In this document: positions 3,952 through 38,222 of the stretch, one piece after another
Numbering within the stretch: the stretch's first letter is position 1
Layout of the letters: every line of letters starts with the position of its first letter
NCBI GenBank assembly: GCA_020051955.1
Contig: JAGVQB010000014.1
Coordinates: 1 to 47,531, forward strand
Reading direction: 5' to 3'
Origin: a bacterium
GTDB lineage: Bacteria; Patescibacteriota; Patescibacteriia; UBA9934; GWF2-40-263
Length of the DNA stretch: 47,531 nt
Position numbers and translations under genes: made by a program
The notes under the pieces: model-generated
What the model was told of the DNA's origin: nothing
What the model saw: the letters and a program-made list of their open reading frames with translations, nothing else
The model's database searches: none

Positions 3952-3996
3952 AGGGCTGAAAAGGCTTATAGGGCTTAAAGGGCTGAAAAGGGTGGG
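3952..3996 (+). repeat. junction microsatellite (GGGCT-N3-5 units)
   Basis: gggctgaaaa-ggcttata-gggcttaaa-gggctgaaaa-gggtgggg. Confidence 0.7.
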
Positions 3997-4717: not shown

Positions 4718-5950
4718 ATGCGAAAGATTCTTTTTTTTCTCATCACAGGTGTGGTCGTGGTAATGGCGATTACGTTTGCGTCTTACATTGTGTTTACGCA
4801 ATTCCGACCGGAGAGGGAGGTTGGTGTGATGATGGGGAAGATGGCGCGGTTGACGAGCTTCGCGTATGACGCTGGGTTTGGATGGAGCGCGGGATCGGAT
4901 GGCGAGAGTGTGAGCACCACGCTTTACGCCAGCGGGAAGGTTTTGGCGAGTGAGTCAGGAGATGTTGATCACGCAACTAAGTTTCGAGTAGTGCGACTTT
5001 CGCGCGCGCGAGATTACAACGATCTCGCGGGTGAGATACGGAATGTCGGCGATACGACGTTTCTGACCTATTCCCCGCCAGGGCCTGATGTGCCTGGGGT
5101 AGATTTTGACGGCGAGACGTGGGTGGAGTTCGACGAGGGGGAGCTTGCGTCCTGGGGTGAGGTTTTGCCAGGGCTCGAGGTACCGATCGAATCAGTGACG
5201 CCAGAGGGTGAATGGACTGATGATGGAATCAAGCGTCTGCGCGTTTTGCTTTCGATGATGGATGTTTTACTTGTCGAATACAATGGTCTGACAGAAATTA
5301 TCGACGGGGAGGTCGCGCGCATTATTGATGGGCGTTTCGATATTGATGCGGTCGAGGGATTTCTTTTGAATCTTGTGCGCGCGAAGTACGGCGATGAGCC
5401 AGATGACGAGGATAGGATTTTCGCGCACGCGCAGGCCATTCAGTTAGCGCGTCTGGATTTGCGTCTCTGGGTTGGGATGAACGATCACTTGTTGCATTGC
5501 GTGCGGGCGACTGGCAATTTTTCTGTCCCCCCCCTGCCCGAGGGGGGGCTAGGGGGGGTGGGAGTGAAGCCAAGCAACGAATCTGTACCAGTTGAAATAA
5601 GGATTGAGTTTTCAGGATTCGACGAGCCCGTCTCGATCCTTGAACCATCCGCTATCGACTTCGCCAGTATTTATCGGACGACGTTCGGTAGCCTGCCGTC
5701 CGCAGGCGACATTGCTTCTGCGACACGCAAAACACTTGTGCGCGCGGGGTTGGTTCATCTCCCCTCGGTACAAATGATTGAATCGAACGATCCAGACAAT
5801 GACGGGCTCGATAACATCCTCGAAACTTTTTACGGAACCTCTGCCCTAAAGGCTGACACTGACAGTGACGGAATAAACGACGGCGATGAAGTCCGAGCGG
5901 GAAGTAACCCCCGAGGACGTGGTTCGTTGTTCGGGTTTGGGTTGGATTAA
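4718..5950 (+). CDS. membrane-anchored/secreted protein with C-terminal Asp-rich calcium-binding-type repeats
   Basis: TM segment ILFFLITGVVVVMAITFASYIVF. The C-terminus carries DPDNDGLDN and DTDSDGINDGDE (thrombospondin type 3-like). It also carries an in-frame Rep-E copy. Confidence 0.7.
   Translation: MRKILFFLITGVVVVMAITFASYIVFTQFRPEREVGVMMGKMARLTSFAYDAGFGWSAGSDGESVSTTLYASGKVLASESGDVDHATKFRVVRLSRARDYNDLAGEIRNVGDTTFLTYSPPGPDVPGVDFDGETWVEFDEGELASWGEVLPGLEVPIESVTPEGEWTDDGIKRLRVLLSMMDVLLVEYNGLTEIIDGEVARIIDGRFDIDAVEGFLLNLVRAKYGDEPDDEDRIFAHAQAIQLARLDLRLWVGMNDHLLHCVRATGNFSVPPLPEGGLGGVGVKPSNESVPVEIRIEFSGFDEPVSILEPSAIDFASIYRTTFGSLPSAGDIASATRKTLVRAGLVHLPSVQMIESNDPDNDGLDNILETFYGTSALKADTDSDGINDGDEVRAGSNPRGRGSLFGFGLD
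5527..5569 (+). repeat. Rep-E copy, in frame in CDS 4718-5950
   Basis: cccccccctgcccgagggggggctagggggggtgggagtgaag, translated as PPLPEGGLGGVGVK. Matches 29009-29049 over about 41 nt. Confidence 0.9.
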
Positions 5951-6021
5951 CTCCCCCTCCTTCCCAACCTGTCCACCGAAGCCTTGGCGAAGGTGGAGGA
6001 GGGGTCAGGGGAGGTTGCCTG
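5946..6021 (-). repeat. Rep-D copy (about 70-nt GC-rich hairpin element), inverted orientation
   Basis: ctccccctccttcccaacctgtccaccgaagccttggcgaaggtggaggaggggtcaggggaggttgcc. Homologous to 8288-8356, 13986-14055 and 31337-31406. Confidence 0.85.
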
Positions 6022-6027
6022 CAAATT

Positions 6028-6459
6028 ATGAAAATTTTTAGTCGTCGCGCCACAAAACACCTCCGTAGTGAAAATCGTAAAGAGATGAATAATCTTGAGG
6101 GGCTTGTATGGAATAGAATTAAGTCGAAACAGCTTCTTGGTTACAAGTTTCGTCGGCAACATGGCATTGGTCCATTCATAGTTGACTTCTATTGTCCAAA
6201 AAAGAAACTTGTCGTTGAAATTGACGGAGACACTCATTACACACCAGAGGCGTTAGTTTATGACGAGACACGTAGTTCGTTTTTAAGAGAGCAGGGTATC
6301 CAGATAATGAGATTTACTAACCTGGACGTGTGGGAGAATTTGGATGGAGTAATAGAAGCGATTATGGAAGCGCTTGCTGGAGATACTGGTAGCCCAGGTG
6401 CAGGCAATTCAGGTGCAGGCAACCCCCCTTTATCCCCCCTTGGGAAGGGGGGAGATTAG
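6028..6459 (+). CDS. DUF559 (Vsr-like) endonuclease domain protein
   Basis: LVWNRIKSKQLLGYKFRRQHGIGPFIVDFYCPKKKLVVEIDGDTHY matches the DUF559 pattern (KFRRQ...IVDF...EIDG..H). The last codons and the stop come from a Rep-D fragment. Confidence 0.8.
   Translation: MKIFSRRATKHLRSENRKEMNNLEGLVWNRIKSKQLLGYKFRRQHGIGPFIVDFYCPKKKLVVEIDGDTHYTPEALVYDETRSSFLREQGIQIMRFTNLDVWENLDGVIEAIMEALAGDTGSPGAGNSGAGNPPLSPLGKGGD
6417..6457 (+). repeat. short Rep-D variant (centre deleted), + orientation
   Basis: ggcaacccccctttatcccccct-tgggaaggggggagatt. Confidence 0.8.
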
Positions 6460-6464
6460 AAAAT

Positions 6465-8228
6465 ATGACAACAAGTAGATGGCGTTCATCTTCGAACCTT
6501 GACCTCCGTCTCGAAGTATTTCGTTACGGGTTGGTTTTGTTCGCGGCGATTATTATTTTGAAACTCGCGTACCTTCAGATTTTTCAACACGGATTTTATT
6601 CCACGTTAGCCAGCGGACAACGCGAGCTTTTTGAGGAGCTTATTCCAGAGCGTGGGGACATATTAGTGCATGATTACAAAGACGAGACAACGCTTCCAAT
6701 CGCCACGAATCAGAAACTCGCGTTTGTGTACGCTGACCCACGGCTTGTTGTTAATCTAGATAATACGTCGCAAGCGTTGGGTAAGATTCTTGGATATGAC
6801 GAGGCGACCATTGACGCGCTTAAAGAACGCTTGGATCAGCCCGCGGATCCGTACGAGCCGATTGCGCGTGAGATCAGCGAAGAGACGCTCTCACAAATTC
6901 TCACGCTCGAGATTCCCGGCGTTTCCTACGTCCGCGAATCCTCCCGTTTATATCCAGAGCCAGAAATGGGCGGTCATGTTGTTGGGTTTCTTGGAACTAA
7001 CGAGGACGGGAGTACATCTGGTAAATATGGAGTTGAAGGTTTTTTTGATGGGGATCTTGCTGGCACGCGCGGGTCTCTAATGTCTGAGCGAGATGTGGCG
7101 GGCAGACTTATTGCTGTCGCGCAAAGTGAATTGATCCCAGCGGTTGACGGCGCGGACATCTTGCTTACGATCGATCGCACGATTCAGTACAAAGCCTGTT
7201 CCGCGCTCAAGTCCGCCGTACAAAAACACGGCGCGGACGGCGGGAGCGTTGTCATTGTCGTTCCGCAGACGGGTCACATACTCGCGATGTGTGGCATGCC
7301 TGATTACGATCCAAACATTTACAACGAAGTGGACTCGATAAACATTTTTAACAACCCAGCGATTTTTGCCGCGTACGAACCGGGTTCGATTTTCAAGCCT
7401 ATGACAATGGCCGCGGCGATTGACGCGTCCGCCGTTGAACCTAATACGACTTTCACTGACACAGGGTCCGTGATGGTTGATGGGTGGCCAAAACCAATTG
7501 GTAACGCGGAAGGAAAAGTTTATGGCACTGTTGATATGACGACTGTTTTGGAAGAGTCGATCAACACCGGAATGATTTTTTCAATGAGGCAGATGGGGAT
7601 GGATGTTTTTGAAAAGTACGTGAAGAGTTTTGGTTTTGGTGTTGGCACTGGTATTGAGCTGGAGACCGAGGCGCACGGGGACATTTCCTCGCTTGATGAG
7701 GCGGCGGAGATTTATGCCGCGACCGCGGCGTTTGGACAAGGGATTTCTGTCACGCCATTGCAGATCGTAATGGCGTACGCGGCGATCGCGAACGGCGGGA
7801 TTTTGAAGAGCCCGATAATTGTTGATGAAATACATCGCGCTGATGGTACGGTTGAGAAGCGCGTGAGCCGCGACGTCGCGCAGGTGATCGATTCCAAAAC
7901 CGCGCGCACTATTTCAGCGATGCTTGTGTCTGTTATCGAGCATGGGCACGGCAAGCGTGCGGCAGTGTCGGGATATTACATCGCGGGTAAAACCGGCACA
8001 GCGCAGGTGGCGCGCACAAATGGAATTGGGTATGAGCAGGATAATACGATTGGTTCATTCGCTGGTTTTGGACCAGTGGAAGACCCAAAGTTCGCGATGG
8101 TTGTGCGAATTGATAATCCCAAGGACGTGGTATGGGCGGAGTCTACTGCCGCGCCATTGTTTGGGGAGATCGCGGAGTTTCTGTTACAGTATTTTGAGGT
8201 GGTACCGGTTAGGAAGGGGGGAGATTAG
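6465..8228 (+). CDS. ftsI: class B penicillin-binding protein (FtsI/PBP2-type transpeptidase)
   Basis: N-terminal TM segment, plus SxxK (GSIFKP), SxN (ESINTG) and KTG (GKTGTA) motifs. Confidence 0.9.
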   Translation: MTTSRWRSSSNLDLRLEVFRYGLVLFAAIIILKLAYLQIFQHGFYSTLASGQRELFEELIPERGDILVHDYKDETTLPIATNQKLAFVYADPRLVVNLDNTSQALGKILGYDEATIDALKERLDQPADPYEPIAREISEETLSQILTLEIPGVSYVRESSRLYPEPEMGGHVVGFLGTNEDGSTSGKYGVEGFFDGDLAGTRGSLMSERDVAGRLIAVAQSELIPAVDGADILLTIDRTIQYKACSALKSAVQKHGADGGSVVIVVPQTGHILAMCGMPDYDPNIYNEVDSINIFNNPAIFAAYEPGSIFKPMTMAAAIDASAVEPNTTFTDTGSVMVDGWPKPIGNAEGKVYGTVDMTTVLEESINTGMIFSMRQMGMDVFEKYVKSFGFGVGTGIELETEAHGDISSLDEAAEIYAATAAFGQGISVTPLQIVMAYAAIANGGILKSPIIVDEIHRADGTVEKRVSRDVAQVIDSKTARTISAMLVSVIEHGHGKRAAVSGYYIAGKTGTAQVARTNGIGYEQDNTIGSFAGFGPVEDPKFAMVVRIDNPKDVVWAESTAAPLFGEIAEFLLQYFEVVPVRKGGD

Positions 8229-8356
8229 AGAAGTCCCCCTCCTTCCCAAGGAGGGGTCAGGGGAGGTTGCCTGAATCTTTCATATCGGCAACCCCCCTTT
8301 ATCCCCCCTCTACCTTCGCCAAGGCTTCGGTGGACAGGTTGGGAAGGGGGGAGATT
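8212..8356. repeat. cluster of three Rep-D pieces (terminal fragment, short inverted copy, full + copy)
   Basis: The three pieces are 8212-8226 ggaaggggggagatt, 8234-8273 (short inverted copy) and 8288-8356 (full copy ggcaacccccctttatcccccctctaccttcgccaaggcttcggtggacaggttgggaaggggggagatt). Confidence 0.85.
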
Positions 8357-8369
8357 CATAAAAAACTCT

Positions 8370-10740: not shown

Positions 10741-10793
10741 ATTCGGTTATCTACAGATTACAGATTCTTACAGATTTACAGATTTTACAGATA
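10741..10793 (+). repeat. Rep-A solo copy
   Basis: attcggttatctacagattacagattcttacagatttacagattttacagatag. Identical to 2381-2443 apart from one missing heptamer unit. Confidence 0.9.
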
Positions 10794-10950: not shown

Positions 10951-11120
10951 GAAAAAAATCCAAAACACAGGAACCAAAATCCAAATGGAGAGAGGGAAAA
11001 GATCCAAAGATCCAAAACCCAAAAATCCAAAAAGAAGAAGGATTAGGAATAGTAATGTTTGGATTTTGGACTTTGGGTTTTGGATTTTTTCCCCCTCTGT
11101 TTGGATCTTTGGATTTTTTG
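10951..11120. repeat. Rep-B copy (CCAAAAT/GGATTTT low-complexity rod hairpin)
   Basis: An A/C-rich arm (aaaaaaatccaaaac...atccaaaacccaaaaatccaaa) faces a complementary T/G-rich arm (tttggattttggactttgggttttggatttttt...). Related to 27769-27868 and 16046-16085. Confidence 0.8.
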
Positions 11121-11127
11121 CCGACGT

Positions 11128-13287
11128 ATGCCATTCACTCTCCATTCCATCTATAAACCCGCTGGCGACCAGCCCCTCGCGATCAATCAGCTGACTGCGA
11201 ATCTTTTAGCTGGCGAAAAGCACCAGACGCTCTTGGGCGTAACAGGATCTGGAAAAACTTTTACGATAGCCAACGTCATCGCGAATGTTCAACGACCCAC
11301 GCTCGTTATCGCTCACAACAAAACCCTCGCCGCCCAGCTGTGTAACGAGTTCCGCGAGTTTTTTCCAAACAACGCTGTTGAATACTTTGTGAGCTACTAC
11401 GACTATTACCAACCAGAGGCGTACCTCCCGCGCACTGATACGTACATCGAAAAAGAGTCGCAGATCAACGAGGAGATTGATCGCCTTCGTCACGCCGCAA
11501 CGCAGGCTGTGTTGTCTCGTCGTGATGTAATTATTGTCGCGAGCGTGTCGTGCATTTACGCGCTTGGCAGTCCGAAGGAGTATGAGAAGACAGTGCTACG
11601 TGTGAGGTTAGGGAACAGGAAACAGGGATTAGGGAACAGGGAACAGGGATTAGGGAACAGGGAACAGGGATTAGGGAACAGGAAACAGGGAGGGGAAGGG
11701 GTCGAAATTGATAGGAACACTCTCCTGCGCAAGCTCATCGAAATGCAATTCGAGCGCACGACCGCTGATCTCACGCGCGGACATTTTCGAGCACGGGGAG
11801 ATATTGTCGAGGTGATGCCAATGCAGGAGGAAGTTGTGTATCGTTTTGTGTTTGAGAATGAAACGATCGTCTCGATTCAGGCAATGGATCCTGTTACGCG
11901 AAAAATTCGCGAGGAGCTGAAGGACGTTTGGATATTTCCAGCTAAGCACTATGTCGTGTCTCAATCTCGCCAGGCACAAGCTCTGCGTGATATCCGTAGC
12001 GAGCTGAAGGAACAGCTCGAGCAATTTGATAAAGAGGGAAAAGTGCTTGAAGCCGAGCGCTTGTCTCGTCGGACGCGTTTTGATCTTGAGATGATCGCTA
12101 ACGTCGGGTATTGCTCTGGCATTGAAAACTACTCGCGCCATTTTGACGGTCGCGTTCCGGGCGCACCGCCGTATACGCTCATTGATTATTTCCCGAAAGA
12201 TTTTTTAACGATTATTGACGAGTCGCATGTAACCGTCCCGCAGATTGGAGGAATGTATAACGGAGATCGCGCGCGCAAGGACACATTGGTGGAACACGGG
12301 TTCAGGTTGCCAAGCGCGAAGGATAATCGTCCGCTGAAGTTCGTGGAGTTTGAGGATCGCGTTGGCCAGGTGGTTTTTGTGAGCGCAACACCAGGCAAGT
12401 ATGAGCACGAAAAGTGTCACCGACAACAGACATCCGACCCCCGACCACTGATTGTCGAGCAGATTATTAGGCCGACAGGGTTGGTGGATCCGAAGATTAG
12501 TGTGAGGAGGGTGACGGAGTTAGGGAACAGGGAACAGGGAACAGGGATTAGGGAACAGGTTGGGGAGAATATAGGACAAGTAGAGGATTTGATTCAGGAG
12601 ATTCAAAAACGTGTCGAGCGCAAGGAGCGTACGCTTGTTACGACCCTTACCAAAAAAATGGCAGAGAATCTTACGGAGTTTTTGATCGAGAAAGGCATCA
12701 AGGTTCAATACCTCCACTCTGATGTCCAGACGCTCGACCGCATCACAACGCTTTCTGATTTGCGACGCGGAGTATATGACGTGATAATCGGCGTGAATCT
12801 TTTACGCGAAGGGCTTGATCTTCCAGAGGTGACGCTCGTCGCGATTTTGGACGCGGACAAGGAAGGTTTTTTGCGATCCGAGACTTCTATCATTCAGACA
12901 ATCGGACGTGCCGCGCGCAACGTAAACGGCGAAGTTATTCTCTACGCTGATGTAATGACAGGTTCGCTCAAGCGTGCGATTGATGAAACGCAACGCCGCC
13001 GCAAGATCCAGTTGGCTTACAACAAGACGCACGGGATAACTCCAAAGACAATAGAAAAACAGATCAAAGACATTCGTGCGATGCTTAGCGGTGAGAAGTC
13101 AACGGAGGCCGTTCTCAAACTTGAGCTGACCGCGGAACCGCACGAAATCGAAGAGGTGATTCGCGAGAAGGAATCCGAGATGAAGGAAGCCGCGCGGAAA
13201 TTGGACTTTGAGACTGCTGCTATTTTGAGGGACGAGATAGTTATTCTCCGACAACGTCATCCCTCCTCACCCTCCTTCCCCTCCTAA
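11128..13287 (+). CDS. uvrB: excinuclease ABC subunit B
   Basis: [20 protein letters not shown] and DESHVT, with near-colinear similarity to E. coli UvrB (from memory). ATG 11128 (MPFTLHS) is preferred over track start 11059, which lies inside Rep-B. Confidence 0.95.
11608..11700 (+). repeat. Rep-C array (GGGAACA/GGGATTA heptamers) in frame in uvrB
   Basis: ttagggaacaggaaacagggattagggaacagggaacagggatta..., translated as [31 protein letters not shown]. Confidence 0.95.
12520..12559 (+). repeat. Rep-C array, second in-frame copy in uvrB
   Basis: ttagggaacagggaacagggaacagggattagggaacagg, translated as [13 protein letters not shown]. Confidence 0.9.
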
Positions 13288-13298
13288 CCCTCCAGCAC

Positions 13299-16019
13299 AT
13301 GCAAAACAAAATCACAATCCGCGGGGCGCGCGAGCACAACCTAAAAAACATCTCGCTCGAGCTTCCGCGCAATAAGCTGATTTGCATTACAGGCGTCTCT
13401 GGATCAGGGAAGTCGAGTTTGGCGTTTGATACGATTTTTGCAGAGGGGCAGAGAAGATATGTGGAAAGTTTGTCAGCGTACGCGCGTCAGTTTTTGGGAC
13501 AGATGGAGAAGCCTGACGTTGATGAGATTGAAGGTTTGTCGCCGGCGATTTCAATTGATCAGAAAGCGCACGGCAGTAACCCACGCTCAACCGTTGCCAC
13601 GATCACGGAGATTTACGATTACTTACGCGTCTTGTTCGCGCGAGTTGGCCAGCCGTATTGCGTGAAGTGCGGGGACGCAATTCAGAAGTTAACGAATGAG
13701 GAGATGGTGAATGTGGTGATGGGAAAGGTGGAAAGGTGGCAAGGTGGTGAGGTGGTGAGGCGGGGAGGTGTTGAGGTGGAAAAGGGGGAAATTAAAATTC
13801 TCGCGCCGGTGGTTAGGGGGAGGAAGGGTGAGTACTACCAGCTTTTGTACGATCTATATAATTCTGGGTTCGCGCGAGTCAGAATCGATGGCAAGGAGTT
13901 TCGATTGGACGAGCAGATTAAACTCGCACGCTATCAGCAACATACGATCGAGGTTGTTGTTGATACGATTCCTGTTGTTGGCTTTGCCCCCCTCCTTCCC
14001 AACCTGTCCACCGTAGCCTTGGCGAAGGTGGAGGAGGGGCAGGGGGAGGTTGCCTGCGCTAAGGACTCTCGTCAACGTCTTGCTGACGCGCTCGAGATCG
14101 CGGTTGAGCGCGGGAACGACGTTGTGACGATTGTTTATCCAGATAAAACAGAACAGCTTCTGTCAGCGAAGTTCAGTTGTCCAAAGGACGGCTTCTCATT
14201 TCCCGAGATCGAGCCGCGGCTCTTCTCGTTTAATTCTCCCTACGGCGCTTGTCAGCAATGCACTGGATTGGGAACAGCGGAGTTGTTCTCTGAAGAGGTA
14301 TGTGGAAAGTGTCTGGGCGCGAGGTTGAGAGAGGAGGCGTTGAATGTGAGACTCCCCGGAGGAGGTGATCAGGTGGGGAGGTGGTCAGGTGGTCAGGAGG
14401 GGAGGTGGGAAGGTGGGGAGGTGGTTAGGTGGGGAGGTGGTCAGGACAGAAAGGCAGGGGTTTCGATCGTGGATATTACGAAAATGTCCATTGCGCAGGC
14501 TGTCGGGTACTTCGAACATCTTTCACTCTCTGATAAACAGCAACAGATCGCTGGGTCAGTGCTCAAAGAGATTCAGAATCGTCTCCAGTTTATGCTTGAC
14601 GTTGGTCTCCACTATCTCACGCTGGATCGCATGGCAGGGACGCTCTCTGGCGGTGAGGCACAACGTATTCGTCTGGCGTCTCAGGTTGGATCAAAACTCG
14701 TTGGCGCGATGTACGTGCTTGATGAGCCGACGATTGGTCTTCACCAGCGTGACAACGATCGTCTGATCAAGACGCTTGAGAACTTGCGTGACATTGGCAA
14801 CACAGTGATCGTTGTCGAGCATGACGAGGACACGATTCTCGCAAGCGATTATATGGTGGAGATTGGACCCGGCGCTGGCGTGCGTGGCGGGGAGGTTGTC
14901 GCGGCAGGGGATTTGTCGGACGTGTACAATGATCCGCATTCGCTTACTGCCGCGTACTTGCGAGGTGATAAAAAGATTGATGTTCCAAAAGAACGTCGCA
15001 CCGAAAGTAAATACACGCTCAAAATCCGCAATGCCTCACAGAACAATTTGAAACATATTAACGTCGAAATCCCACTGCGTCGTTTCGTGTGTATAACCGG
15101 CGTGTCTGGTTCTGGAAAATCTACGCTCGCGTACGAGACAATGTACAAAACGATTGCTAAGCGTCTCTACGGCTCAAAGCACACACCAGGCGCGCACGAT
15201 TCCCTCCTCGGGCTTGAGTATTTGGACAAGGCGATTTTGATTGATCAAGGCGCGATCGGGCGCACGTCTCGTTCTAACCCAGCAACATACACCGGGGCTT
15301 GGGATCCCATTAGAGAAATTTTCGCGTCAACCGCGGAGGCTCGTTATCGCGGATACAAAAAAGGAAGGTTCAGTTTTAACCGTCCTGGCGGAAGGTGCGA
15401 GCATTGCGAAGGCCATGGTCTGATCGCGATCGAGATGCATTTTTTGCCAACGGTGTTTGTCACGTGTGACGTTTGTAAGGGAAGACGGTTTGATCGTGAG
15501 ACGCTTGAGATCACGTTCAAAGATAAAAATATATTTCAAGTGTTGGAGATGGAAGTAAGCGAGGCGGCCGAGTTTTTCAAAGACGTGCCAGTAGTGAGCG
15601 ATAAACTTGAAACGCTCAAGCGCGTGGGGCTCGGGTATGTGAAACTTGGACAGCCGGCGCCAACGTTGTCTGGCGGCGAGGCACAGCGCGTGAAGTTATC
15701 AACGGAGCTTGCCAAGAGACAGACTGGGAAGACCCTGTATTTGTTTGACGAACCGACAACAGGATTACATTTCGAAGACGTGAAAAAGTTACTTGAGGTT
15801 TTGCACGAGCTTGTGGATAAGGGTAACTCTGTCATTGTGATCGAGCACAACTTGGATGTGATCAAGACAGCGGACTGGGTCATTGACTTGGGTCCAGAAG
15901 GCGGCGATCTCGGTGGAGAGGTTGTTGTTTGCGGCACGCCCGAGGATGTCGCGCGTCACTCGAAGAGTTACACGGGGCAGTACCTCCAGCGTGTATTAAA
16001 AAATATCGTTACCAGGTAA
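13299..16019 (+). CDS. uvrA: excinuclease ABC subunit A
   Basis: Two ABC modules ([11 protein letters not shown] and [11 protein letters not shown]; LSGGEAQR twice) and zinc modules, colinear with E. coli UvrA apart from three repeat insertions and one missing segment. Confidence 0.95.
13722..13797 (+). repeat. Rep-F purine-rich (GGTGG-type) insertion 1 in uvrA
   Basis: ggaaaggtggaaaggtggcaaggtggtgaggtggtgaggcggggaggtgttgaggtgg, translated as [21 protein letters not shown]. Confidence 0.8.
13986..14055 (-). repeat. Rep-D copy in frame in uvrA
   Basis: cccccctccttcccaacctgtccaccgtagccttggcgaaggtggaggaggggcagggggaggttgcc, translated as [22 protein letters not shown]. Confidence 0.9.
14358..14446 (+). 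repeat. Rep-F purine-rich insertion 2 in uvrA
   Basis: ggaggaggtgatcaggtggggaggtggtcaggtggtcaggaggggaggtgggaaggtggggaggtggttaggtggggaggtggtcagg, translated as [29 protein letters not shown]. Confidence 0.85.
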
Positions 16020-16045: not shown

Positions 16046-16085
16046 GCTTTTTTTGGATTTTTGGCGTTTTGGATTTTGGTTTTTA
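16046..16085. repeat. partial Rep-B-like tract
   Basis: ttttttggatttttggcgttttggattttggttttt. Confidence 0.6.
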
Positions 16086-16610: not shown

Positions 16611-16642
16611 TAAATTGTTAAATGGTTAAATTGTTGAATTGT
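16611..16642 (+). repeat. junction microsatellite, 4 x 8 nt
   Basis: taaattgt-taaatggt-taaattgt-tgaattgt. Confidence 0.8.
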
Positions 16643-16690
16643 TGGAAGGTTAGCATCACCGAAGAGGAGAATCAATGGTACCCTGGGATT

Positions 16691-18142
16691 ATGATGAACG
16701 AACGGATAAAGATCAAAAATGGGGATTTGCCAGATGAGCCTGGCGTGTATTTTTATTATGACCGAGCGGGCAGTCTTTTGTATGTTGGTAAAGCTACGTC
16801 GTTGAAGCGGAGGGTTGGGTCGTATTTTGTGAAAGCGCACAATGGGAGGATAGCGGAAATGGTTGGCAAGATCGCGAGGATAGATTATATCGAAACGCGC
16901 ACCGTGATCGAGGCGTTGATTTTGGAGGCAAACGAGATTAAGGCGCGCCGACCAAAGTACAACATTCTTCAGCGCGATGATAAGACGTTTTTGTATTTAG
17001 CGATTACCAACGAGCGGTATCCGCGACCGTTGTTGGTTCGAGGTCACGAGCTGAAGCAGGCGGGGGAAAAACAGGGAACGGTGAACAGGAAACAGGGATT
17101 AGGGAACAGGATTGGGAAGGGAAGACGATTTGTTCGGATTTTTGGACCATACACCAGCAGTCGTTCGCTCAAGATCGCGCTGGAGCTTGTGCGCAGAAGT
17201 ATTCCTTGGAGTACTTGTGCACCTCCGAGTTTGGGCGGACGGGCGCGACCATGTTTTGATTCCCAAATCGGCAAGTGCCCAGGCGTTTGCATTGGCGCGA
17301 TAAGTCAGTCGGATTATCGTCGCGTCATTCGTCAGTTGATAATGTTTTTTGATGGCAAGAAGTCTAGTGTCGAGCGTTCGCTCAAGCGGGAAATGGAACG
17401 CGCTTCTCGCGATCAGCGGTTCGAGGACGCGGCTCTGTTGTGCAAACGACTTCAAGCGCTCAAGCATATTCACGATATCGCGCTCATCTCTCGAGAGGAT
17501 TACGAGCTTCTGTTTACGAGAACGATTAGTGGTATCAATCTGTTGGGTCGAATCGAAGCCTATGACATCAGCAACATCTCTGGCACATCGGCGGTTGGAT
17601 CAATGGTTGTGTTTGAGGATGGGAAACCCGCGAAGCATTTATATCGTCGGTTCAAGATCAAGACAGTAAAAGACGCTAATGACGTGGCAATGTTGGAGGA
17701 GGTTGTGAGGAGGAGGATCGCGAGGGGGAGGTGGGGGAAAAGCGACAAGGGTGACAGGGGCAACAAGGGGGACGGGGGGAACAGGGAACAGGGAACGGGG
17801 AATAGTGAACAGGGAACGGGGAATAGTGAACAGGGAACGGGGGCAAGTGGGAGGTGGGAATATCCAGAGGTGATGATAGTTGATGGAGGGGAGCCGCAGG
17901 TAAATCGTGTGCAGGCTGTGCTCGACGAGTTCGGTATTAAGATTCCGATCGTGGGAATTGCCAAAGGTTTTGATCGCAAGCAAGATCGGCTTGTGTACGA
18001 TCGGGACGATCTTGAACTCCAACGCGTCATTACTCGCGGCAAAGAACTTTTCCAGCGTGCGCGTGACGAGGCACACAGATTCGCGATTCAGTATCATCGT
18101 GCTTTACGTGCCAAACATTTCAAAAGAAAAAAGACCTTGTAA
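16691..18142 (+). CDS. uvrC: excinuclease ABC subunit C
   Basis: GIY-YIG domain (PGVYFYYD...LLYVGKA), UVR domain (RFEDAALLCKRLQAL) and endonuclease region (IVDGGEPQ...EAHRFA). An alternative start at 16622 has AGGAGG 11 nt upstream. Confidence 0.9.
   Translation: MMNERIKIKNGDLPDEPGVYFYYDRAGSLLYVGKATSLKRRVGSYFVKAHNGRIAEMVGKIARIDYIETRTVIEALILEANEIKARRPKYNILQRDDKTFLYLAITNERYPRPLLVRGHELKQAGEKQGTVNRKQGLGNRIGKGRRFVRIFGPYTSSRSLKIALELVRRSIPWSTCAPPSLGGRARPCFDSQIGKCPGVCIGAISQSDYRRVIRQLIMFFDGKKSSVERSLKREMERASRDQRFEDAALLCKRLQALKHIHDIALISREDYELLFTRTISGINLLGRIEAYDISNISGTSAVGSMVVFEDGKPAKHLYRRFKIKTVKDANDVAMLEEVVRRRIARGRWGKSDKGDRGNKGDGGNREQGTGNSEQGTGNSEQGTGASGRWEYPEVMIVDGGEPQVNRVQAVLDEFGIKIPIVGIAKGFDRKQDRLVYDRDDLELQRVITRGKELFQRARDEAHRFAIQYHRALRAKHFKRKKTL
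17067..17122 (+). repeat. Rep-C-like array in frame in uvrC
   Basis: aaaaacagggaacggtgaacaggaaacagggattagggaacaggattgggaaggg, translated as [19 protein letters not shown]. Confidence 0.85.
17725..17860 (+). repeat. compound purine-rich array (nonamers, Rep-C heptamers, then 21-nt units) in frame in uvrC
   Basis: gcgacaagg-gtgacaggg-gcaacaagg, then gggaacagggaaca, then (cagggaacggggaatagtgaa) about 2.6 times. Translated as [42 protein letters not shown]. Confidence 0.9.
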
Positions 18143-27712: not shown

Positions 27713-27748
27713 GTCAAGGGAATCAAGGGAGTCAAGGTTATCAAGGTT
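27713..27748 (+). repeat. junction microsatellite, 4 x 9 nt
   Basis: gtcaaggga-atcaaggga-gtcaaggtt-atcaaggtt. Confidence 0.8.
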
Positions 27749-27768: not shown

Positions 27769-27868
27769 GAAAAAAATCCAAAATCCAGGAACCAAAATCC
27801 AAAAAGAAAAGTATCAGGAATAATTAGGTTTGGGTTTTAGGGTTTGGATCTTTGGATTTTTTTCCCCC
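27769..27868. repeat. Rep-B copy (rod hairpin)
   Basis: gaaaaaaatccaaaatccaggaaccaaaatccaaa ... tttgggttttagggtttggatctttggattttttt. Confidence 0.8.
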
Positions 27869-30585: not shown

Positions 30586-31536
30586 TTACTTCGAAACAAA
30601 ATCTACAATCGCGCCGGCGACATCCATGCCAGTCACGCGTTCGAGCTCTTTGAAACCAGGGTTAGCGTTCACCTCCAAAAGCAACGGCCCACGATTCGAT
30701 CGAATAATATCCACGCCAGCTATATCCAGTGAAAATAATTTTGCCGCGCGCATTGCCAGGTCAGCCTCCGCACGGCTTAACTCGATAGGGGTTCCGATTC
30801 CGCCGTTGGAAGTATTCGCGCGCACGTCTCCCTCTGGAGCCGCGCGTTCCATCGCGGTCAATATCTCCCCACCAAGCAGGAACGCGCGCAAATCTTTTCG
30901 CCCCGCCTCCGCGATAAACTCTTCAACGATTATTGGATTGCGATCGCGTACGGCCAAGTATTCAACAATTGGCTGTAGCGTCTCTGGGTCTCTCGCAAAG
31001 AACACTCCTTTCCCATGCGTTCCAAACGCGACTTTCAAAATCACAGGGAATCCAATCTCGCGCGCGATCGCCAGCGCATCCTCACTTTTTTGAATGATGC
31101 CCCAGCGCGGACAGGGGATGCCATTGGCAGAACACAAAACATGCTGGGTGATTTTATTTTTCCCATTCATGATTGCCACGCCACCATTGATGACTCGATA
31201 TCCAGCTTGCGCGAGGAGATCTGGCGCGTACGTGCGCAGGCTTGGCTCCTCGATAAAGTTCGGGCGGCAGATGATTACGTCCATTGGAGGAAGGGGGTTG
31301 GATTGGTGAAGAATCGTTTGCGGTGACACTAGTACAGGCAACCCCCCTTTATCCCCCCTCCGCCTTCGCCAAGGCTTCGGCGGACAGGTTGGGAAGGGGG
31401 GAGATTGAAATGACAAAAACGGTTCGAAGATTTTTGCAACTTCGTGTCCGCGCTTCAAAATAGCTTCCTCGAGTCGGTCAGCGCCAGTGTGCTGATCCTC
31501 GGTTGAGGTGGAGAAGGTTAGGATGCCGATGGTCAT
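30586..31536 (-). CDS. rimK: RimK-type ATP-grasp ligase
   Basis: The C-terminal half is colinear with E. coli RimK (from memory), for example IIRSNRGPLLLEVNANPGFKELE. ATG 31536 (MTIGILTF) is preferred over track start 31776, which would translate Rep-C antisense. Confidence 0.8.
   Translation of the reverse strand: MTIGILTFSTSTEDQHTGADRLEEAILKRGHEVAKIFEPFLSFQSPPFPTCPPKPWRRRRGDKGGLPVLVSPQTILHQSNPLPPMDVIICRPNFIEEPSLRTYAPDLLAQAGYRVINGGVAIMNGKNKITQHVLCSANGIPCPRWGIIQKSEDALAIAREIGFPVILKVAFGTHGKGVFFARDPETLQPIVEYLAVRDRNPIIVEEFIAEAGRKDLRAFLLGGEILTAMERAAPEGDVRANTSNGGIGTPIELSRAEADLAMRAAKLFSLDIAGVDIIRSNRGPLLLEVNANPGFKELERVTGMDVAGAIVDFVSK
31337..31406 (+). repeat. Rep-D copy in frame (antisense reading) in rimK
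   Basis: ggcaacccccctttatcccccctccgccttcgccaaggcttcggcggacaggttgggaaggggggagatt, read on the minus strand as SPPFPTCPPKPWRRRRGDKGGLP. Confidence 0.9.
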
Positions 31537-31537: not shown

Positions 31538-31670
31538 TGGGAGGGGTGAGGGGAGAGGGAGGAGGGAACAGGGAACAGGGAACAGGAAACAGGGAACAGG
31601 GAACAGGGATTAGGGAACAGTGAACAGGGAACAGGGATTAGGGAACAGGGAAGGGTTAGGAGGGGAGGGA
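31538..31670 (+). repeat. Rep-C array (longest copy), between the minus-strand dus and rimK genes
   Basis: gggaggggtgaggggagagggaggagggaacagggaacagggaacaggaaacagggaacagggaacagggattagggaacagtgaacagggaacagggattagggaacaggg. G-rich on the + strand like all other copies. Confidence 0.9.
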
Positions 31671-32681
31671 GCTCGGAGAGAATTCGTCGAGGATTTGGAG
31701 GACTTCGTTGGCAGAGCACGACGTGTGGAGACGCTCTTTGAAAGGTTTCGCGCCGGGCACTCCGCGGAAGTACCACGAGAGATGTTTTCGAAAAGTTGTT
31801 ACGCCCCGCTCGCCATATTGCTCGAGATGGTAACGCAGATGAAGTTTAATGACACGCACGCGCTCTTCATTCGTGACTGGTGTTGGTGCGCACCCAGCGA
31901 GCAGATCATTGATATGTGAAAAAATCCAGGGGTTCCCCAGGGCGCCGCGAGCGATCATGACGCCAGCGGCGCCAGTGGTTTTCAAAGCATCGATTGCAAG
32001 AGGCGCGGTGTGTGCGTCGCCATTAGCGAGCAGTGGTATCGAGAGTGTTTTCGCTAACTCACCGATTAGATTCCAATCCGATTTTCCAGAATACCCCTGT
32101 GACTTGGTGCGCCCATGGACCGTAATTAGATCCGCGCCTGCTTCCTCGAGCACGTGCGCGAACTCAAAGCACTCGCGTGGGTTACTCCAACCAGAACGAA
32201 TTTTTACAGAGAGAGGGACAGTGATCGCGGACTTCATTGCTCTCACGATCTCGCTTGCGAGTTTCGGTTCTCGCATAAGCGCCGCGCCGTTAAAATTGTG
32301 AACGATCTTATAAACCGGGCAACCCATGTTAATGTCAAAACCTTCGGGGCGATGTTGAGCTTCGATGATTCGCGCGGCCTCGGCCATCGTGTTTGGGTTT
32401 GAACCAAAGAGTTGTTGCACCAACGGTCGTTCATCATCGTGGATGGCGGTCATGCCCAGTGTCTTCTCATTGTCACGCACAACCGCCTCCGCGCTCACCA
32501 TTTCGCGGAAGATGATGACTTGATGAGAAGATTCCTCGGTTACTCTTCGACTCGCTTGCGCGGGCTCAGGGTTGTGTTGCGCGACAAGTCGCACAACACG
32601 ACAAAACGCCGAATCTGTCATATCAGCCATTGGCGAAAGCGCGATGATTGGACGCGGGCACGTCGCCCAGTTGAGAAACAT
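31656..32681 (-). CDS. dus: tRNA-dihydrouridine synthase
   Basis: SPMADMTDSAFC, FDINMGCPV, KIRSGW and HGRT. The start is uncertain (ATG 32681 chosen; track start 32882). Confidence 0.85.
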   Translation of the reverse strand: MFLNWATCPRPIIALSPMADMTDSAFCRVVRLVAQHNPEPAQASRRVTEESSHQVIIFREMVSAEAVVRDNEKTLGMTAIHDDERPLVQQLFGSNPNTMAEAARIIEAQHRPEGFDINMGCPVYKIVHNFNGAALMREPKLASEIVRAMKSAITVPLSVKIRSGWSNPRECFEFAHVLEEAGADLITVHGRTKSQGYSGKSDWNLIGELAKTLSIPLLANGDAHTAPLAIDALKTTGAAGVMIARGALGNPWIFSHINDLLAGCAPTPVTNEERVRVIKLHLRYHLEQYGERGVTTFRKHLSWYFRGVPGAKPFKERLHTSCSANEVLQILDEFSPSSLPS

Positions 32682-32862
32682 ATCTCTTGGAGGGTAGCGG
32701 TAAATCAACGATCGTTCAAGCCACTTTGCCGTAACCGGGTAACGGCGAAATGACAGTGGAGGTGGAACCCGTGGTGTCGAACACTGGACAGATAATAAAA
32801 AAGTGATAACTTTGTCTGTCAGCAGACGGCACGCGTGCGTTTGCTGTGAGGAGAAGACGAGA

Positions 32863-34086
32863 ATGGTAAAGCCAGGACCCAAGTCTGGAGCGGAAGAGCG
32901 TTATCCCATTGAGAAGGATCTTCTCAGCCTCGGTGTCTCTGTCGTTGAGATCGCAAGTCGTCTGGGTGTGAGCGATTCCACGGTCTGGGAAGACATCACT
33001 GACAAAGGTGGGTTGCACGTATGGATTCCGTCCCGTCCCAAGAGCGGCGCGGAGATCTACGGTGCGAGGTTCCTGCGCTGTGCGAATATCGAGAGGAGAG
33101 CATGGTCGTTGGAAGAAAGACAGTCGTGTGAATCCATCAGATCGTTGGTTGAAGAATCAATTGGTCTGAATGAGATCAAGACGTTTCTGCTTGGCATGTT
33201 TTGCGCGCACCTCGCGCTCCAGTATCCCGCTGACCATCCTGGGCTCGAACGCGAGATGGAGCTTGCGCGCGCCGTGTTCGACATTCGTTCAATTGCCAAG
33301 AGCGCTGGCATCGCTCAGACAAACGCGGACTACCTGCTCTGGGACTACTTCCAGGAGGTTGTGAGAGGACAACGCAATCCACCCACGTCAAAGGACAACG
33401 CCATCGCGGACCTGGCGGAGATGTTCCGCCTTCGCGCTTCGCGAGAGAAACTGCAGGGTCCGTTTCAGGACGGATTCGCGCAAGCGGTTCGCGAAGCGAT
33501 TGATGCTCTTGCGAGCAACCAGGCGTCTGTACTGCGTATGCGTTACGGCATTGATTCAGAAGTGAGGACGCTGAGGGCGATTGGGGCTTTGCTTGGTTGC
33601 GTAACGAACGCGCGGATTGAACAGATCGAGAAAGAGGCGCTGGTGGCAATCCGCGACTCCAGACATGGGGATCGTCTGCGCGAGTACCTCACTGACTTCT
33701 CGTGTCTCTCCACAAAACTTGTGGAGGCACAGACCGAGATCGTACGCCTTCGCAACCTGATCGTTGATCGCGAATCAAGAAGTGGGGCGCTCGGTTTCCT
33801 CGCGACAGATGTTGAGGATCTTGGTCTGCCGTCTCGTTGCAGAAGGCGGATGCGTGAGCTGGAAATTAGCAAGGTTGGTCAGCTCGTGCGCTGTGCCAGG
33901 AGCGACCTGCGAAAACAGTGGTTCGGTAAGGGGTCGCTTGACGCGATTGCCAATGCTCTGTCTGCTCATGGGTATGGGCTTGATGGCGTGGGGCTTTTGC
34001 CAGAAGAAGTTGAGCTCTATCCGATCCCCGATGCCGTGCTTCGCTACCGAGAGGCATTGGTGGAACGAAAGAAGTCGCGCTGGTAG
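32863..34086 (+). CDS. multi-HTH protein: resolvase-type HTH + sigma-70 region 4-like + RNA polymerase alpha C-terminal-domain-like module, GC-rich
   Basis: N-terminus KPGPKSGAEERYPIEKDLLSLGVSVVEIASRLGVSDSTVWEDI. Sigma region 4-like ASVLRMRYGIDSEVRTLRAIGALLGCVTNARIEQIEKEALVAIR. C-terminus VEDLGLPSRCRRRMRELEISKVGQLVRCARSDLRKQWFGKGSLDAIANALSAHGYGL aligns by eye with E. coli RpoA [64 protein letters not shown] lies 8 nt before ATG 32863. Confidence 0.7.
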   Translation: MVKPGPKSGAEERYPIEKDLLSLGVSVVEIASRLGVSDSTVWEDITDKGGLHVWIPSRPKSGAEIYGARFLRCANIERRAWSLEERQSCESIRSLVEESIGLNEIKTFLLGMFCAHLALQYPADHPGLEREMELARAVFDIRSIAKSAGIAQTNADYLLWDYFQEVVRGQRNPPTSKDNAIADLAEMFRLRASREKLQGPFQDGFAQAVREAIDALASNQASVLRMRYGIDSEVRTLRAIGALLGCVTNARIEQIEKEALVAIRDSRHGDRLREYLTDFSCLSTKLVEAQTEIVRLRNLIVDRESRSGALGFLATDVEDLGLPSRCRRRMRELEISKVGQLVRCARSDLRKQWFGKGSLDAIANALSAHGYGLDGVGLLPEEVELYPIPDAVLRYREALVERKKSRW

Positions 34087-36335: not shown

Positions 36336-38222
36336 ATGCCCGACCAGGCACACATTAGAAATTTTTGCATCATCGCGCACATTGATCATGGAAAGTCGAC
36401 CCTCGCGGATCGGCTTCTTGAGTTAACTGGCACGGTGGATAAACGCAAGATGAAGGAACAAATTTTGGATTCAATGGATTTGGAGCGCGAGAAAGGGATC
36501 ACAATCAAGCTCGCGCCGGCGAGGATGAAGTACGAGTATTTAGGGAACAGGGAACAGGAAACAGGGATTAGGGAACAGGAGAGAGGACAGTACGTTTTGA
36601 ATTTGATTGATACTCCCGGACACGTGGATTTTACTTATGAGGTGTCGCGGTCGTTGGCGGCTGTTGAAGGCGCGATTCTGCTTGTTGACGCGACACAGGG
36701 CGTGCAGGCGCAAACGATTGGAAACTTGTATTTGGCGCTTGGGGAGGATTTGGAAATTATTCCAGTGTTGAACAAGGTTGATCTGTTAGCGGCAGATATA
36801 CCGGCTCGTATCGCGGAGCTGACTCAACTAATTGGTTGTAAACCAGAGGACATACTTTTGGTCAGTGGAAAAACTGGCGTCGGCGTGCCAGAACTTCTTG
36901 ACGCGATTGTCGAGCGTATTCCACCGCCGTCTGGCAACCCTCTTGCTCCCACTCGCGCGCTCATTTTTGATTCGTTCTACGACGACTATCGCGGTGTTAT
37001 GGCGTACGTTCGAGTTGTGGATGGAAAGATTACAAAGCGTGAGAAGATGAAGATGATGGTGACGCGCGCTGACATCGAAATGTTGGAGACAGGGGCTGTG
37101 ACGCCTGGAGGTTTTATCGCCACAGACGTGCTTGAGACAGGGCAGATTGGGTATGTTGTAACAGGGCTCAAGGAGATAAGCGGGTGTCGCGTGGGAGATA
37201 CGATTACACAAGTAAACGGTGGGACTGATTCTCTTCCTGGCTATAAAGAGGTGAAACCGATGGTCTTCGCGGGGATTTTTCCGCAGGAGGGAGATGATTT
37301 TCACAAGTTGCGTGAGGCAATGGGAAGATTGAAACTGAACGATTCCGCGCTTATGTATGAGCCGGAACATTCTCCTGCGATTGGGTTTGGATTTCGATGC
37401 GGGCTGTTGGGAATGTTGCATTTGGAAATTTTGAAAGAGCGACTTGAGCGAGAGTTTGATATCAATCTCGTTGTGACAGTGCCGTCGGTGGCGTATGAAG
37501 TACATCTTCGCGGCGCAAGCGCACTCCCACCCCCCCTAACCCCCCCTCGGGCAGGGGGGGGATCTTCAATCGTAATCAAAAGCCCGCTTGAGTTGCCTGA
37601 CCTTTCGCGTATTGATCACATCAAAGAGCCGTGGGTGAAGCTGGATCTTGTGAGTCCATCAGAATACATCGGCGCGATAATGACTCTTCTGCAAGAACGC
37701 CGAGGTATTTATCAGACAACAGAATATCTTTCCGGCGCGCGCGCGATTCTTCATTATGAGATCCCACTTTCGATGATCATTATTGATTTCTACGACAAGT
37801 TAAAAAGTGTTACGGCTGGATACGGGTCAATGAACTACGACGTGATCGGATACCGTCCAGCGGATGTTGTGCGCATGGATATTCTTGTCGCTGAAGATCC
37901 TGTGGACGCGTTCGCGACGCTTGTGTATTCAGATGAGGCAGAGAAGGTTGGGCGCAGAATAACAAATGTGCTCAAGGACTCAATTCCAAAACAAAACTTT
38001 GTTATAAAACTTCAGGCCGCCATTGGAGGAAAAATTGTCGCGTCAGAGCGAATCTCAGCAATGCGCAAGGACGTGACAGCTGGTTTGTACGGAGGAGATG
38101 TGACTCGCAAGCGCAAGGTTTTGGAAAAGCAGAAGAGAGGCAAGGCGCGCATGGCGCAGATGGGCAAGGGGAGAGTGAGCATACCGACGGATGCGTATTT
38201 GAAAGTATTGAAAAGGGAATGA
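36336..38222 (+). CDS. lepA: elongation factor 4
   Basis: IRNFCIIAHIDHGKST, DTPGHVDF and NKVDL, with the C-terminal LepA region colinear with E. coli (from memory). Confidence 0.95.
   Translation: MPDQAHIRNFCIIAHIDHGKSTLADRLLELTGTVDKRKMKEQILDSMDLEREKGITIKLAPARMKYEYLGNREQETGIREQERGQYVLNLIDTPGHVDFTYEVSRSLAAVEGAILLVDATQGVQAQTIGNLYLALGEDLEIIPVLNKVDLLAADIPARIAELTQLIGCKPEDILLVSGKTGVGVPELLDAIVERIPPPSGNPLAPTRALIFDSFYDDYRGVMAYVRVVDGKITKREKMKMMVTRADIEMLETGAVTPGGFIATDVLETGQIGYVVTGLKEISGCRVGDTITQVNGGTDSLPGYKEVKPMVFAGIFPQEGDDFHKLREAMGRLKLNDSALMYEPEHSPAIGFGFRCGLLGMLHLEILKERLEREFDINLVVTVPSVAYEVHLRGASALPPPLTPPRAGGGSSIVIKSPLELPDLSRIDHIKEPWVKLDLVSPSEYIGAIMTLLQERRGIYQTTEYLSGARAILHYEIPLSMIIIDFYDKLKSVTAGYGSMNYDVIGYRPADVVRMDILVAEDPVDAFATLVYSDEAEKVGRRITNVLKDSIPKQNFVIKLQAAIGGKIVASERISAMRKDVTAGLYGGDVTRKRKVLEKQKRGKARMAQMGKGRVSIPTDAYLKVLKRE
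36539..36592 (+). repeat. Rep-C array in frame in lepA
   Basis: tttagggaacagggaacaggaaacagggattagggaacaggagagagg, translated as [16 protein letters not shown]. Confidence 0.9.
37522..37561 (-). repeat. Rep-E copy (inverted) in frame in lepA
   Basis: cactcccaccccccctaaccccccctcgggcaggggggg is the reverse complement of Rep-E with one mismatch. Translated as ALPPPLTPPRAGGG. Confidence 0.9.

Follow-up and report, generated by a model that had tools for sequence, protein, structure and literature searches.

How a G-rich repeat of seven nucleotides comes to be read in frame within essential genes of a bacterium from the candidate phyla radiation (CPR), whose genome is compact, is the question raised by the stretch of DNA analysed here, a single metagenome contig of 47,531 nt (JAGVQB010000014.1; hereafter the window, the array count given below referring to these 47.5 kb). 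It holds six tandem arrays of the units GGGAACA and GGGATTA, which we call Rep-C, five of them in the genes uvrB, uvrC and lepA and one between genes. On balance we think it probable, with considerable reserve, that Rep-C represents a known class of G-rich heptameric repeats which here occupies tolerated linkers of housekeeping proteins, where it is probably kept by slippage in steps of 21 nt and is translated into passenger peptides. The type of repeat is known; what is unusual is its location in essential genes, at spots that many relatives fill with repeats of their own.

Location and reading frame of the arrays

All six arrays that an initial annotation of this DNA had listed are found at the positions assigned to them. 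Tandem Repeats Finder returns them with period 7 at 11610-11691, 12522-12559, 17070-17110, 17777-17842, 31563-31652 and 36542-36579, and a two-unit probe (GGGAACAGGGAACA, at most two mismatches) matches the window 40 times, with a mean of 0.28 and a maximum of 2 matches in shuffled sequences. As all 40 of these matches fall on the + strand, the claim that every array is G-rich on that strand, including the one between two minus-strand genes, holds. The units across the six arrays are GGGAACA, GGGATTA, GGAAACA and GTGAACA.

Two of the arrays are hosted by uvrB (11131..13287, + strand, 718 aa; PDB phmmer E=5e-240 to UvrB). The first, uvrB-1 (11608..11700, +), comprises 93 nt or 31 codons, with four 21-nt super-units (TTAGGGAACAGGRAACAGGGA) and a degenerate GGGGAAGGGG tail, and encodes L160-G190 at the junction before the UvrA-interaction domain. 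The second, uvrB-2 (12517..12573, +), is a 57-nt insertion encoding E463-I481, in which a core 40-mer (TTAGGGAACAGGGAACAGGGAACAGGGATTAGGGAACAGG, 12520-12559) is followed by a purine-rich tail. In the case of uvrC, the longest open reading frame (ORF) spans 16622..18142 (+, 506 aa), but the true start is probably 16691 because relatives align from M24. This gene contains uvrC-1 (17067..17122, +), a series of degenerate heptamers (GGGAACG GTGAACA GGAAACA GGGATTA GGGAACA ...) encoding a 19-residue peptide, and uvrC-2 (17725..17860, +), a composite G-rich insert that adds about 38 residues relative to solved UvrC structures and in which 9-mers of the GCGACAAGG type (17742-17773) precede heptamers (17777-17842) arranged in a 21-nt period (GGGGAATAGTGAACAGGGAAC, 95%). 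The gene for LepA (EF4; 36336..38222, +, 628 aa) carries the array at 36539..36592 (+), composed of TTAGGGAACAGGGAACAGGAAACAGGGATTAGGGAACAGG plus AGAGAGGACAG, as well as a second, unrelated insertion of 14 aa. The 40-mers of lepA and uvrB-2 differ at a single base, and the lepA insert is the only one with a flanking direct repeat, the 6-nt AGTACG. Finally, the intergenic array (31538..31670, core 31557-31654, G-rich on +) is non-coding and fills the 119-nt spacer between dus (31656..32882, minus, stop codon at 31656) and a rimK-like gene (30586..31536, minus, start codon at 31536), so that the dus-rimK transcript bears its C-rich complement (49% C, 8% G). That this C-rich spacer could serve in Rho utilisation is only a lead.

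In-frame insertion into uvrB, uvrC and lepA had been claimed from the outset and is borne out, as the longest ORFs run without a stop through all five genic arrays. Since seven is one more than a multiple of three, consecutive units are translated in different phases; the unit of seven nucleotides also occurs in coding and non-coding DNA alike, and it is therefore a unit of DNA and not of protein. The sole stop codon that this repeat can make, a TAG across GGGATTA-G, is avoided everywhere, the T at position 6 of GGGATTA always occupying the second or third place of a codon, and all six frames of (GGGAACA)n are free of stops. The proposed organisation in 21-nt triplets is seen in part: it is found in uvrB-1 (4.0 copies, 96% matches by Tandem Repeats Finder) and, with a different triplet, in uvrC-2 (3.2 copies, 95%), and is missing from the intergenic array (period 7/14) and the short arrays, the 21-nt periods being confined to the long coding arrays. 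Such a distribution would be expected if arrays grow and shrink by replication slippage and only net changes of 3n survive within genes, leaving long coding arrays built of 21-nt super-units; GGGATTA would then be retained in the phases that avoid its TAG.

A unit length that is not a multiple of three also raises the possibility that the arrays are phase-variation switches, in which the gain or loss of one heptamer would shift the frame and turn off nucleotide excision repair or LepA in a subpopulation. Runs of identical GGGAACA in uvrB-2 and in the intergenic array would allow this, and the concentration in repair genes would suit a switchable mutator. However, the long coding arrays alternate unit types, so that perfect register is regained only at 21 nt and a 7-nt slip produces mismatches; the tracts lie in the middle of genes and not near their 5′ ends, all five are in frame, and the corresponding sites of relatives carry 9-nt and 30-nt units that are unable to shift the frame. 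The contingency loci of host-adapted pathogens do resemble Rep-C in having a unit that is not a multiple of three inside coding sequence, but the tracts described here are heterogeneous, mid-gene and located in housekeeping genes, and we consider a switching function highly improbable.

The inserts as protein segments

When UvrB is aligned to solved structures, residues 162-189 (28 aa) are unmatched, as are 19 more between VKPVK and GQIDDL, which is close to the boundaries and sizes (about 29 and 19 aa) predicted in the initial annotation. LepA shows 12 extra residues after MKYEY (insert size 12-17 aa), and UvrC residues 369-413 face about seven reference residues. In these alignments the arrays behave as pure insertions, gene conservation continuing on both flanks; orthologues are empty at these positions or have unrelated sequence there, and do not conserve the same residues. 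An AlphaFold2 model of UvrB (26 homologues, mean predicted local distance difference test score, pLDDT, of 68.7) has pLDDT <50 in the two inserts (165-191 and 465-480) and also at 711-719, a tail that derives from a different repeat. Both UvrB inserts are thus predicted to be disordered loops. Taken with the structure alignments, these values place the in-frame arrays of conserved genes at structurally tolerated positions, and the genic inserts are predicted to encode disordered surface loops.

Two side observations concern these proteins. The different repeat at the end of UvrB is CCCTCCTAA, present in 3.7 copies at 13261-13293, which makes the C-terminal residues (HPSSPSFPS) and the stop codon, 11 nt before the start of uvrA. 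In this lineage UvrC stops directly behind its RNase H-like endonuclease domain and has 435-506 aa including its inserts; Pfam lists no helix-hairpin-helix domain for the UvrC of three relatives (L241, 15272-16612; L242, 15462-16982; L243, 19293-20600; L and P numbers are our labels for the loci and proteins compared).

The same linkers in Uhrbacteria

The best homologues of the window's UvrB and LepA belong to Candidatus Uhrbacteria (Patescibacteria/CPR), with 79% and 84% identity, respectively. Among 119 related UvrBs, internal length variation is limited to positions 161 and 465 of the window protein, where 39 and 31 of the 119, respectively, have at least eight extra residues, the other internal segments averaging no more than two; the C-terminus varies as well. 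Equivalent hot spots of length occur in LepA at the window's insertion site, at two sites in UvrC and at three in UvrA. At the DNA level, the same sites in three syntenic relatives hold other short units, each genome having its own: AAGGGCGCA in L241, GAGGGCTAC / GGCTTCAAG in L242 and AGGCAACCAA, with a perfect 30-nt period, in L243. Tandem units are replaced by palindromic elements at UvrB site 2 and both UvrC sites of L242, and a LepA 84% identical to that of the window (P0122) has SPKATPPSPPLVGGG where the window has heptamers. UvrB site 2 of a further relative, L247, contains GTGAACA/GGGAACA heptamers (AGTGAAC unit) with a single G3 tract. A different type of in-frame mobile insert is found in a UvrB homologue of 1199 aa (P0099), which includes intein and LAGLIDADG endonuclease domains (PF14890, PF14528).

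That linkers are filled in many lineages, with inserts that are all hydrophilic and predicted to be disordered, could mean that these peptides are adaptive linkers or interaction segments of UvrA, UvrB, UvrC and LepA. We judge this very unlikely, as many orthologues have no insert (P0026, P0083 and P0116 among the UvrBs), the inserted sequences are unrelated between genomes and track a nucleotide repeat and not a peptide motif, and the same nucleotide units are also present in non-coding DNA. The comparison bears equally on the idea that the arrays are artefacts of assembly. The window is one metagenome contig, exact-product look-ups of its UvrB and LepA gave no other contig, and three arrays (93-136 nt) are near the length of short reads, so that their copy number could err by multiples of 21 nt. 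Nevertheless, the genic arrays are all in frame and free of stops, the conserved gene resumes on both sides of each, in relatives from independent projects the corresponding sites also carry repeats, and the same heptamers form arrays in isolates and megabase-scale contigs (see below), which makes an artefact barely credible.

Sequences are shared between the sites of one genome. An identical 32-mer is present in both UvrB sites of L241, and in 18 UvrBs with both inserts the two sites share a 4-mer in 5 of 18 cases, compared with 10 of 306 pairs between proteins (Fisher p=6e-4). This sharing suggests that unlinked loci of a genome exchange units or seed one another, and template switching or gene conversion among arrays could be the means by which units pass from locus to locus. 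An alternative is active copy-and-paste or templated insertion of a small mobile cassette without terminal inverted repeats, the hot spots being its insertion targets. Near-identical cassettes of 32-40 nt in unlinked genes of one genome, the significance of within-genome sharing, the difference in element type between close orthologues at the same codon position (as with SPKATPPSPPLVGGG in the LepA of P0122) and the AGTACG repeat around the lepA insert would all be accounted for in this way. On the other hand, long common substrings are bound to arise between arrays made of only two or three unit types; no consistent target duplication, inverted ends or candidate enzyme was found, and the sites also take unrelated palindromic elements, which would be expected of a selection filter but not of a sequence-specific integrase. 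The layering of uvrC-2, with 9-mers beside 7-mers, likewise fits a change in place. We therefore regard active insertion as unlikely. Hairpin and MITE (miniature inverted-repeat transposable element) models were rejected: array fold z-scores are 0.17 to 1.33 (-0.70 for uvrC-2) with minimum free energies near zero, which indicates no Watson-Crick structure, no terminal inverted repeats flank any of the six arrays, and a direct repeat occurs at lepA only.

The broader proposition that Uhrbacteria, and perhaps other CPR, have a process by which a fixed set of interdomain loops in UvrA, UvrB, UvrC and LepA is filled time and again with genome-specific repeats, with a shared mechanism or horizontal spread behind the recurrence of the heptamers across phyla, is speculative and in our opinion doubtful. 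If true, it would describe a mobile or templated "hopping microsatellite", lacking both inverted ends and a known enzyme, through which different units come to replace each other at identical codon positions of related genomes.

The same heptamers in other phyla

A 21-mer of Rep-C (GGRAACAGGGATTAGGGAACA) was scanned in genome and metagenome collections and matched at least 120 loci in each. The matches listed (at least 240 loci) come mostly from Acidobacteriaceae (Terracidiphilus, Granulicella), the other hosts among them being Selenomonadaceae, Oscillospiraceae and other Clostridia (Bacillota), Planctomycetota, Chloroflexota, Vicinamibacterales, Bacteroidia and the cyanobacteria Moorena, Symploca, Anabaenopsis and Halomicronema. 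They include isolates and megabase-scale contigs (Moorena bouillonii PNG5-198, Anabaenopsis CS-531, MFD bins). No CPR contig with these units is among the matches listed in either scan. The foreign arrays extend the family with the units GGGATCA, GGGAATA, GGGACTA and GGGAGTA.

Among the matches listed, 260 of 321 foreign arrays lie outside long ORFs, a same-strand ORF ends just upstream in 156 of 224, at a median distance of 5 nt (interquartile range -1 to 22), and four units is the modal length (151 of 347). Their left flanks show the consensus aaa(g)GCA with a stop codon before it. A hairpin often stands 3′ of the array, that of L069 being a clear terminator. In Acidobacteriaceae the usual order (e.g., L010 5408-5442, L069 and L075) is a stop codon, AAGCA/AGGCA and GGGAACA GGGATTA GGGAACA GGGAACA, often followed by a hairpin. 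At some loci (L032, L034, L167, L191 and L193) arrays are paired in inverted orientation 100-450 nt apart, an arrangement that has also been reported for Xanthomonas. A search with the translated repeat peptide returned 334 representative proteins, most of them short and probably ORFs called over intergenic arrays; the same peptide is present in interdomain linkers of polyketide synthases (ER-array-KR, array-ACP) and of a histidine kinase, which speaks for its tolerance in linkers of other proteins too. The arrays match no Rfam family, whether in the window at the gathering threshold or in eight foreign loci at E up to 0.1, the only hits being tRNAs and an unrelated RAGATH-18. Viral contigs contributed three matches to the 21-mer, and carriage by phages is thus unsupported.

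Heptamers of this kind have been described by Rehm et al. (2015), who reported GGGNATC / (GGGANTN)n in Xanthomonas and GGGGA(C/T)T in Nostoc as abundant repeats that are 89-93% intergenic (7-11% intragenic) and clearly prefer four units (PMC4692102). Rep-C shares with them the 7-nt unit, the G3 tract, the GGGA core, the heterogeneity of units and the many dispersed arrays, and the foreign loci reproduce the published features (four-unit mode, intergenic position just after a stop codon), which puts Rep-C in that class by sequence. It differs in that the units are GGGAACA/GGGATTA, for which quadruplex formation is assigned by analogy, in that five of the six arrays of the window are inside essential genes on the coding strand, where the published repeats are under-represented, and in that the class was described in large genomes whereas the host here is a CPR bacterium with a compact one. 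The window is therefore an atypical setting of the class, sharing its features of sequence and not that of distribution.

Other repeat systems offer partial parallels. The TAACTGA heptamer of Beggiatoaceae, Cyanobacteria and Bacteroidetes is patchy across phyla, with no evident route of transfer (MacGregor 2015, PMC4679880); like Rep-C it forms tandem arrays in scattered lineages, mostly intergenic and near gene ends, but it contains stops in all sense frames and lies just upstream of start codons, whereas Rep-C is G-rich and in frame in genes. In Borgs, the tandem repeats within ORFs have unit lengths divisible by three, and hardly any unit is found at more than one locus (Schoelmerich et al. 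2023, PMC9879509). They share with Rep-C the location in ORFs, the preserved frame, the purine/A-rich coding strand and the disordered segments, and homologous Borg proteins often carry repeats in different elements, as the Uhrbacteria hot spots do; in our case, however, the unit has 7 nt, the frame is kept at the 21-nt level only and the same units recur at six loci. Literature searches on GGGAACA with GGGATTA returned unrelated papers only, and a limited search found no paper in which housekeeping proteins of CPR carry short-unit repeats, in frame, at recurrent sites. The cyanobacterial short tandemly repeated repetitive (STRR) heptamers constitute another bacterial heptamer repeat family. 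The Rickettsia palindromic elements, which Ogata et al. in 2000 reportedly described as selfish DNA in protein-coding genes with palindromic units of 100-150 bp, resemble Rep-C as multicopy non-autonomous DNA that enters housekeeping genes in frame at surface-exposed, tolerated sites and yields a peptide as a by-product, but they are palindromic and Rep-C is a tandem 7-nt array without hairpin potential.

Quadruplex potential and strand orientation

The initial annotation had proposed that the arrays fit the G3N1-7 rule for quadruplexes with four G-tracts. This is correct for four of them, namely uvrB-1, uvrB-2, uvrC-2 and the intergenic array. In lepA and uvrC-1 the G-tracts are interrupted by GGAAACA or GTGAACA units, and these two arrays do not fit. 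The + strand of the window has 12 merged G3N1-7 motifs (1.75 in shuffles), seven of which are Rep-C. G4Hunter, applied as that annotation had advised, gives Rep-C means of 1.17-1.39 on a strand with 61 regions above threshold, so these scores are ordinary for a G-skewed strand, and the highest value of the window (1.47) belongs to an octamer array of uvrA. In vitro, (GGGAATC)3GGG forms a K+-dependent quadruplex with a T1/2 of 50.4 C (PMC4692102). The further claim that both the DNA and the mRNAs could form quadruplexes survives in reduced form: a near-identical unit shows that the repeat class can form one in vitro, and four of six arrays with unexceptional scores follow the rule.

It is possible that the arrays are kept as quadruplexes, in non-template DNA or mRNA, that tune transcription, translation or mRNA decay of uvrB, uvrC, lepA and dus-rimK. 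The enrichment of motifs and the in vitro behaviour just mentioned are consistent with such a function, and so is the modal foreign array of exactly four units placed between a stop codon and a downstream hairpin, as in L069 with its clear terminator. However, besides the interrupted tracts of lepA and uvrC-1 and the unexceptional scores, the units of this family at UvrB site 2 of L247 include only one G3 tract, other relatives fill these sites with non-G4 units (AGGCAACCAA, GAGGGCTAC) or palindromic elements, and the dus-rimK transcript carries the C-rich strand. A quadruplex function for these arrays thus appears improbable to us. Part of the family does have this potential, which analogy makes plausible for the units in question, and because the same sites in relatives hold non-G4 units it is not the defining feature of the genic inserts; it may be a property of the class that is partly eroded here.

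The common orientation of the six arrays could suggest a link to replication. GC skew is positive in 23 of 23 two-kb windows, and the + strand, which encodes 32 of 37 genes, is therefore probably the leading strand throughout. Read antisense, the arrays would encode CSLIPVP/FPNPCSL-type peptides rich in Cys, Ser, Leu, Phe and Pro, in contrast to the Gly, Asn, Arg, Glu and Gln of the sense reading, and such peptides are unlikely to be tolerated in exposed linkers. As the five genic arrays are in + strand genes, protein-level selection explains their orientation, the G-rich strand presumably being the sense strand for its hydrophilic product, and the strand bias rests on a single independent case, the dus-rimK array, whose G-rich strand is the probable leading strand and lies antisense to the transcript. 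The unit of L243 has a non-coding copy that is inverted, in line with the minus-strand gene next to it, the other repeat families of the window occur in both orientations, and published G-rich heptamers have no leading- or lagging-strand preference (PMC4692102). The presence of all six arrays on the + strand is thus no evidence for a replication link.

Two readings based on short motifs were also discarded. The resemblance of ACAGGGAUU to a CsrA-binding site (ACARGGAUG) is inapplicable to relatives with other units. Uptake sequences, species-specific motifs biased to genome-maintenance genes, occur as single copies in both orientations, and the tandem arrays of one strand found here led us to reject that reading.

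Points against linker tolerance and slippage

Several observations weigh against the view that Rep-C consists of passenger arrays kept by slippage in tolerated linkers. Pure neutrality leaves unexplained why GGGAACA and GGGATTA recur together in at least six phyla, as well as the preference for four units and the position after stop codons elsewhere, and both suggest selection on the heptamer class somewhere. Linker tolerance may also not explain the concentration in uvrABC, which accounts for 15% of the coding DNA of the window and contains seven of its eight strong in-frame arrays (binomial p=1.3e-5, gene-level p=5e-4), a concentration that relatives show too. No mechanism of transfer between unlinked loci emerged, and neither flanking homology nor a consistent target duplication nor an associated enzyme was found at the arrays. 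Slippage and array-length polymorphism are themselves assumptions. Even so, we continue to favour tolerated linkers and slippage in 21-nt steps, with peptides that would be passengers and not functional modules.

Other repeats and genes of the window

The window is rich in other repeats. A second kind of in-frame insert is an imperfect palindrome, about 85 nt long, in which one arm is C-rich (CCCCCTCCTTCCCAACCTGTCCACCG) and the other G-rich (GGCGAAGGTGGAGGAGGGG.CAGGGG.AGGTTGCCTGC), and of which a related variant (GCAACCCCCCTTTATCCCCCCTC...GGGAAGGGGGGAGATT) exists. Copies are located between genes and inside uvrA, where they encode a 23-residue peptide, and rimK (QSPPFPTCPPKPWRRRRGDKGGLPV), at 13976-14061 (in uvrA), 5942-6025, 6413-6468, 8196-8365 and 31331-31416 (in the rimK-like gene, minus). 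They resemble Rickettsia palindromic elements, form a family separate from Rep-C and have weak fold z-scores (-0.2 to -1.8). A C7...G7 element, CACTCCCACCCCCCCTA(G/A)CCCCCCCTCGGGCAGG plus complement, is present at 5533-5577, 29013-29058 (dnaX) and 37511-37575 (lepA) and is translated as TPPSPPL(V/K)RGG-like peptides; it constitutes the 14-aa second insert of the window's lepA (ALPPPLTPPRAGGG, about 37511-37555) and is found in the LepA of P0122, P0124, P0187 and P0208 at the site where the window has heptamers.

Octamer arrays of uvrA (AGGTGGGG / AGGTGGTC) are in frame with 24-nt periods at 13726-13782 and 14363-14445, hot spots common to relatives, and the complementary unit CACCTTCCA is repeated 2.9 times at 46855-46880. 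Arrays of 9-mers stand at or just past gene ends (AGGGCTTAA at 3952-3988 and TCAAGGGAA at 27714-27746). Just upstream of uvrB, at 10995-11125, AAAGATCC/CCAAAAA arrays face their complements (TTTGGAT/TTTGGATC) in a long hairpin of -25.7 kcal/mol as DNA (z = -4.4, with 0 of 200 shuffles as good), and similar TTTGGA(T) arrays are seen at 16050-16084 and 27843-27861. TACAGATT(T) arrays and inverted copies (ATCTGTAA) at 2392-2441 and 2887-2931 flank a PD-(D/E)XK nuclease gene (PF13366, about 2480-2858), with which they could form a small cassette; further arrays of this unit lie in opposite orientations at 10752-10792 and 27879-27919. At 29982-30217, a 129-nt unit repeated 1.8 times (92% matches) makes a strong hairpin with a T-run beside tRNA-Gln (30220-30293, minus). 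A protein of 854 aa with type IV secretion coupling-protein domains (TrwB/TraG-like) is encoded at 24514-27078 amid housekeeping genes, and GC content falls to 0.44-0.47 between about 20 and 28 kb.

Significance

G-rich heptamers have been described as intergenic and avoided in coding sequence, and here they are translated in frame in repair and translation genes of a gene-dense CPR genome. This raises two questions: what accounts for the presence of these heptamers in phyla that are not related, and what makes the genes of nucleotide excision repair their preferred location. To annotators, the inserts explain length heterogeneity and low-complexity segments of CPR housekeeping proteins. The system is a tractable one in which to follow how dispersed microsatellites spread and become homogenised within a genome, and the refilling of linkers across Uhrbacteria provides a natural map of insertion tolerance in UvrA, UvrB, UvrC and LepA.

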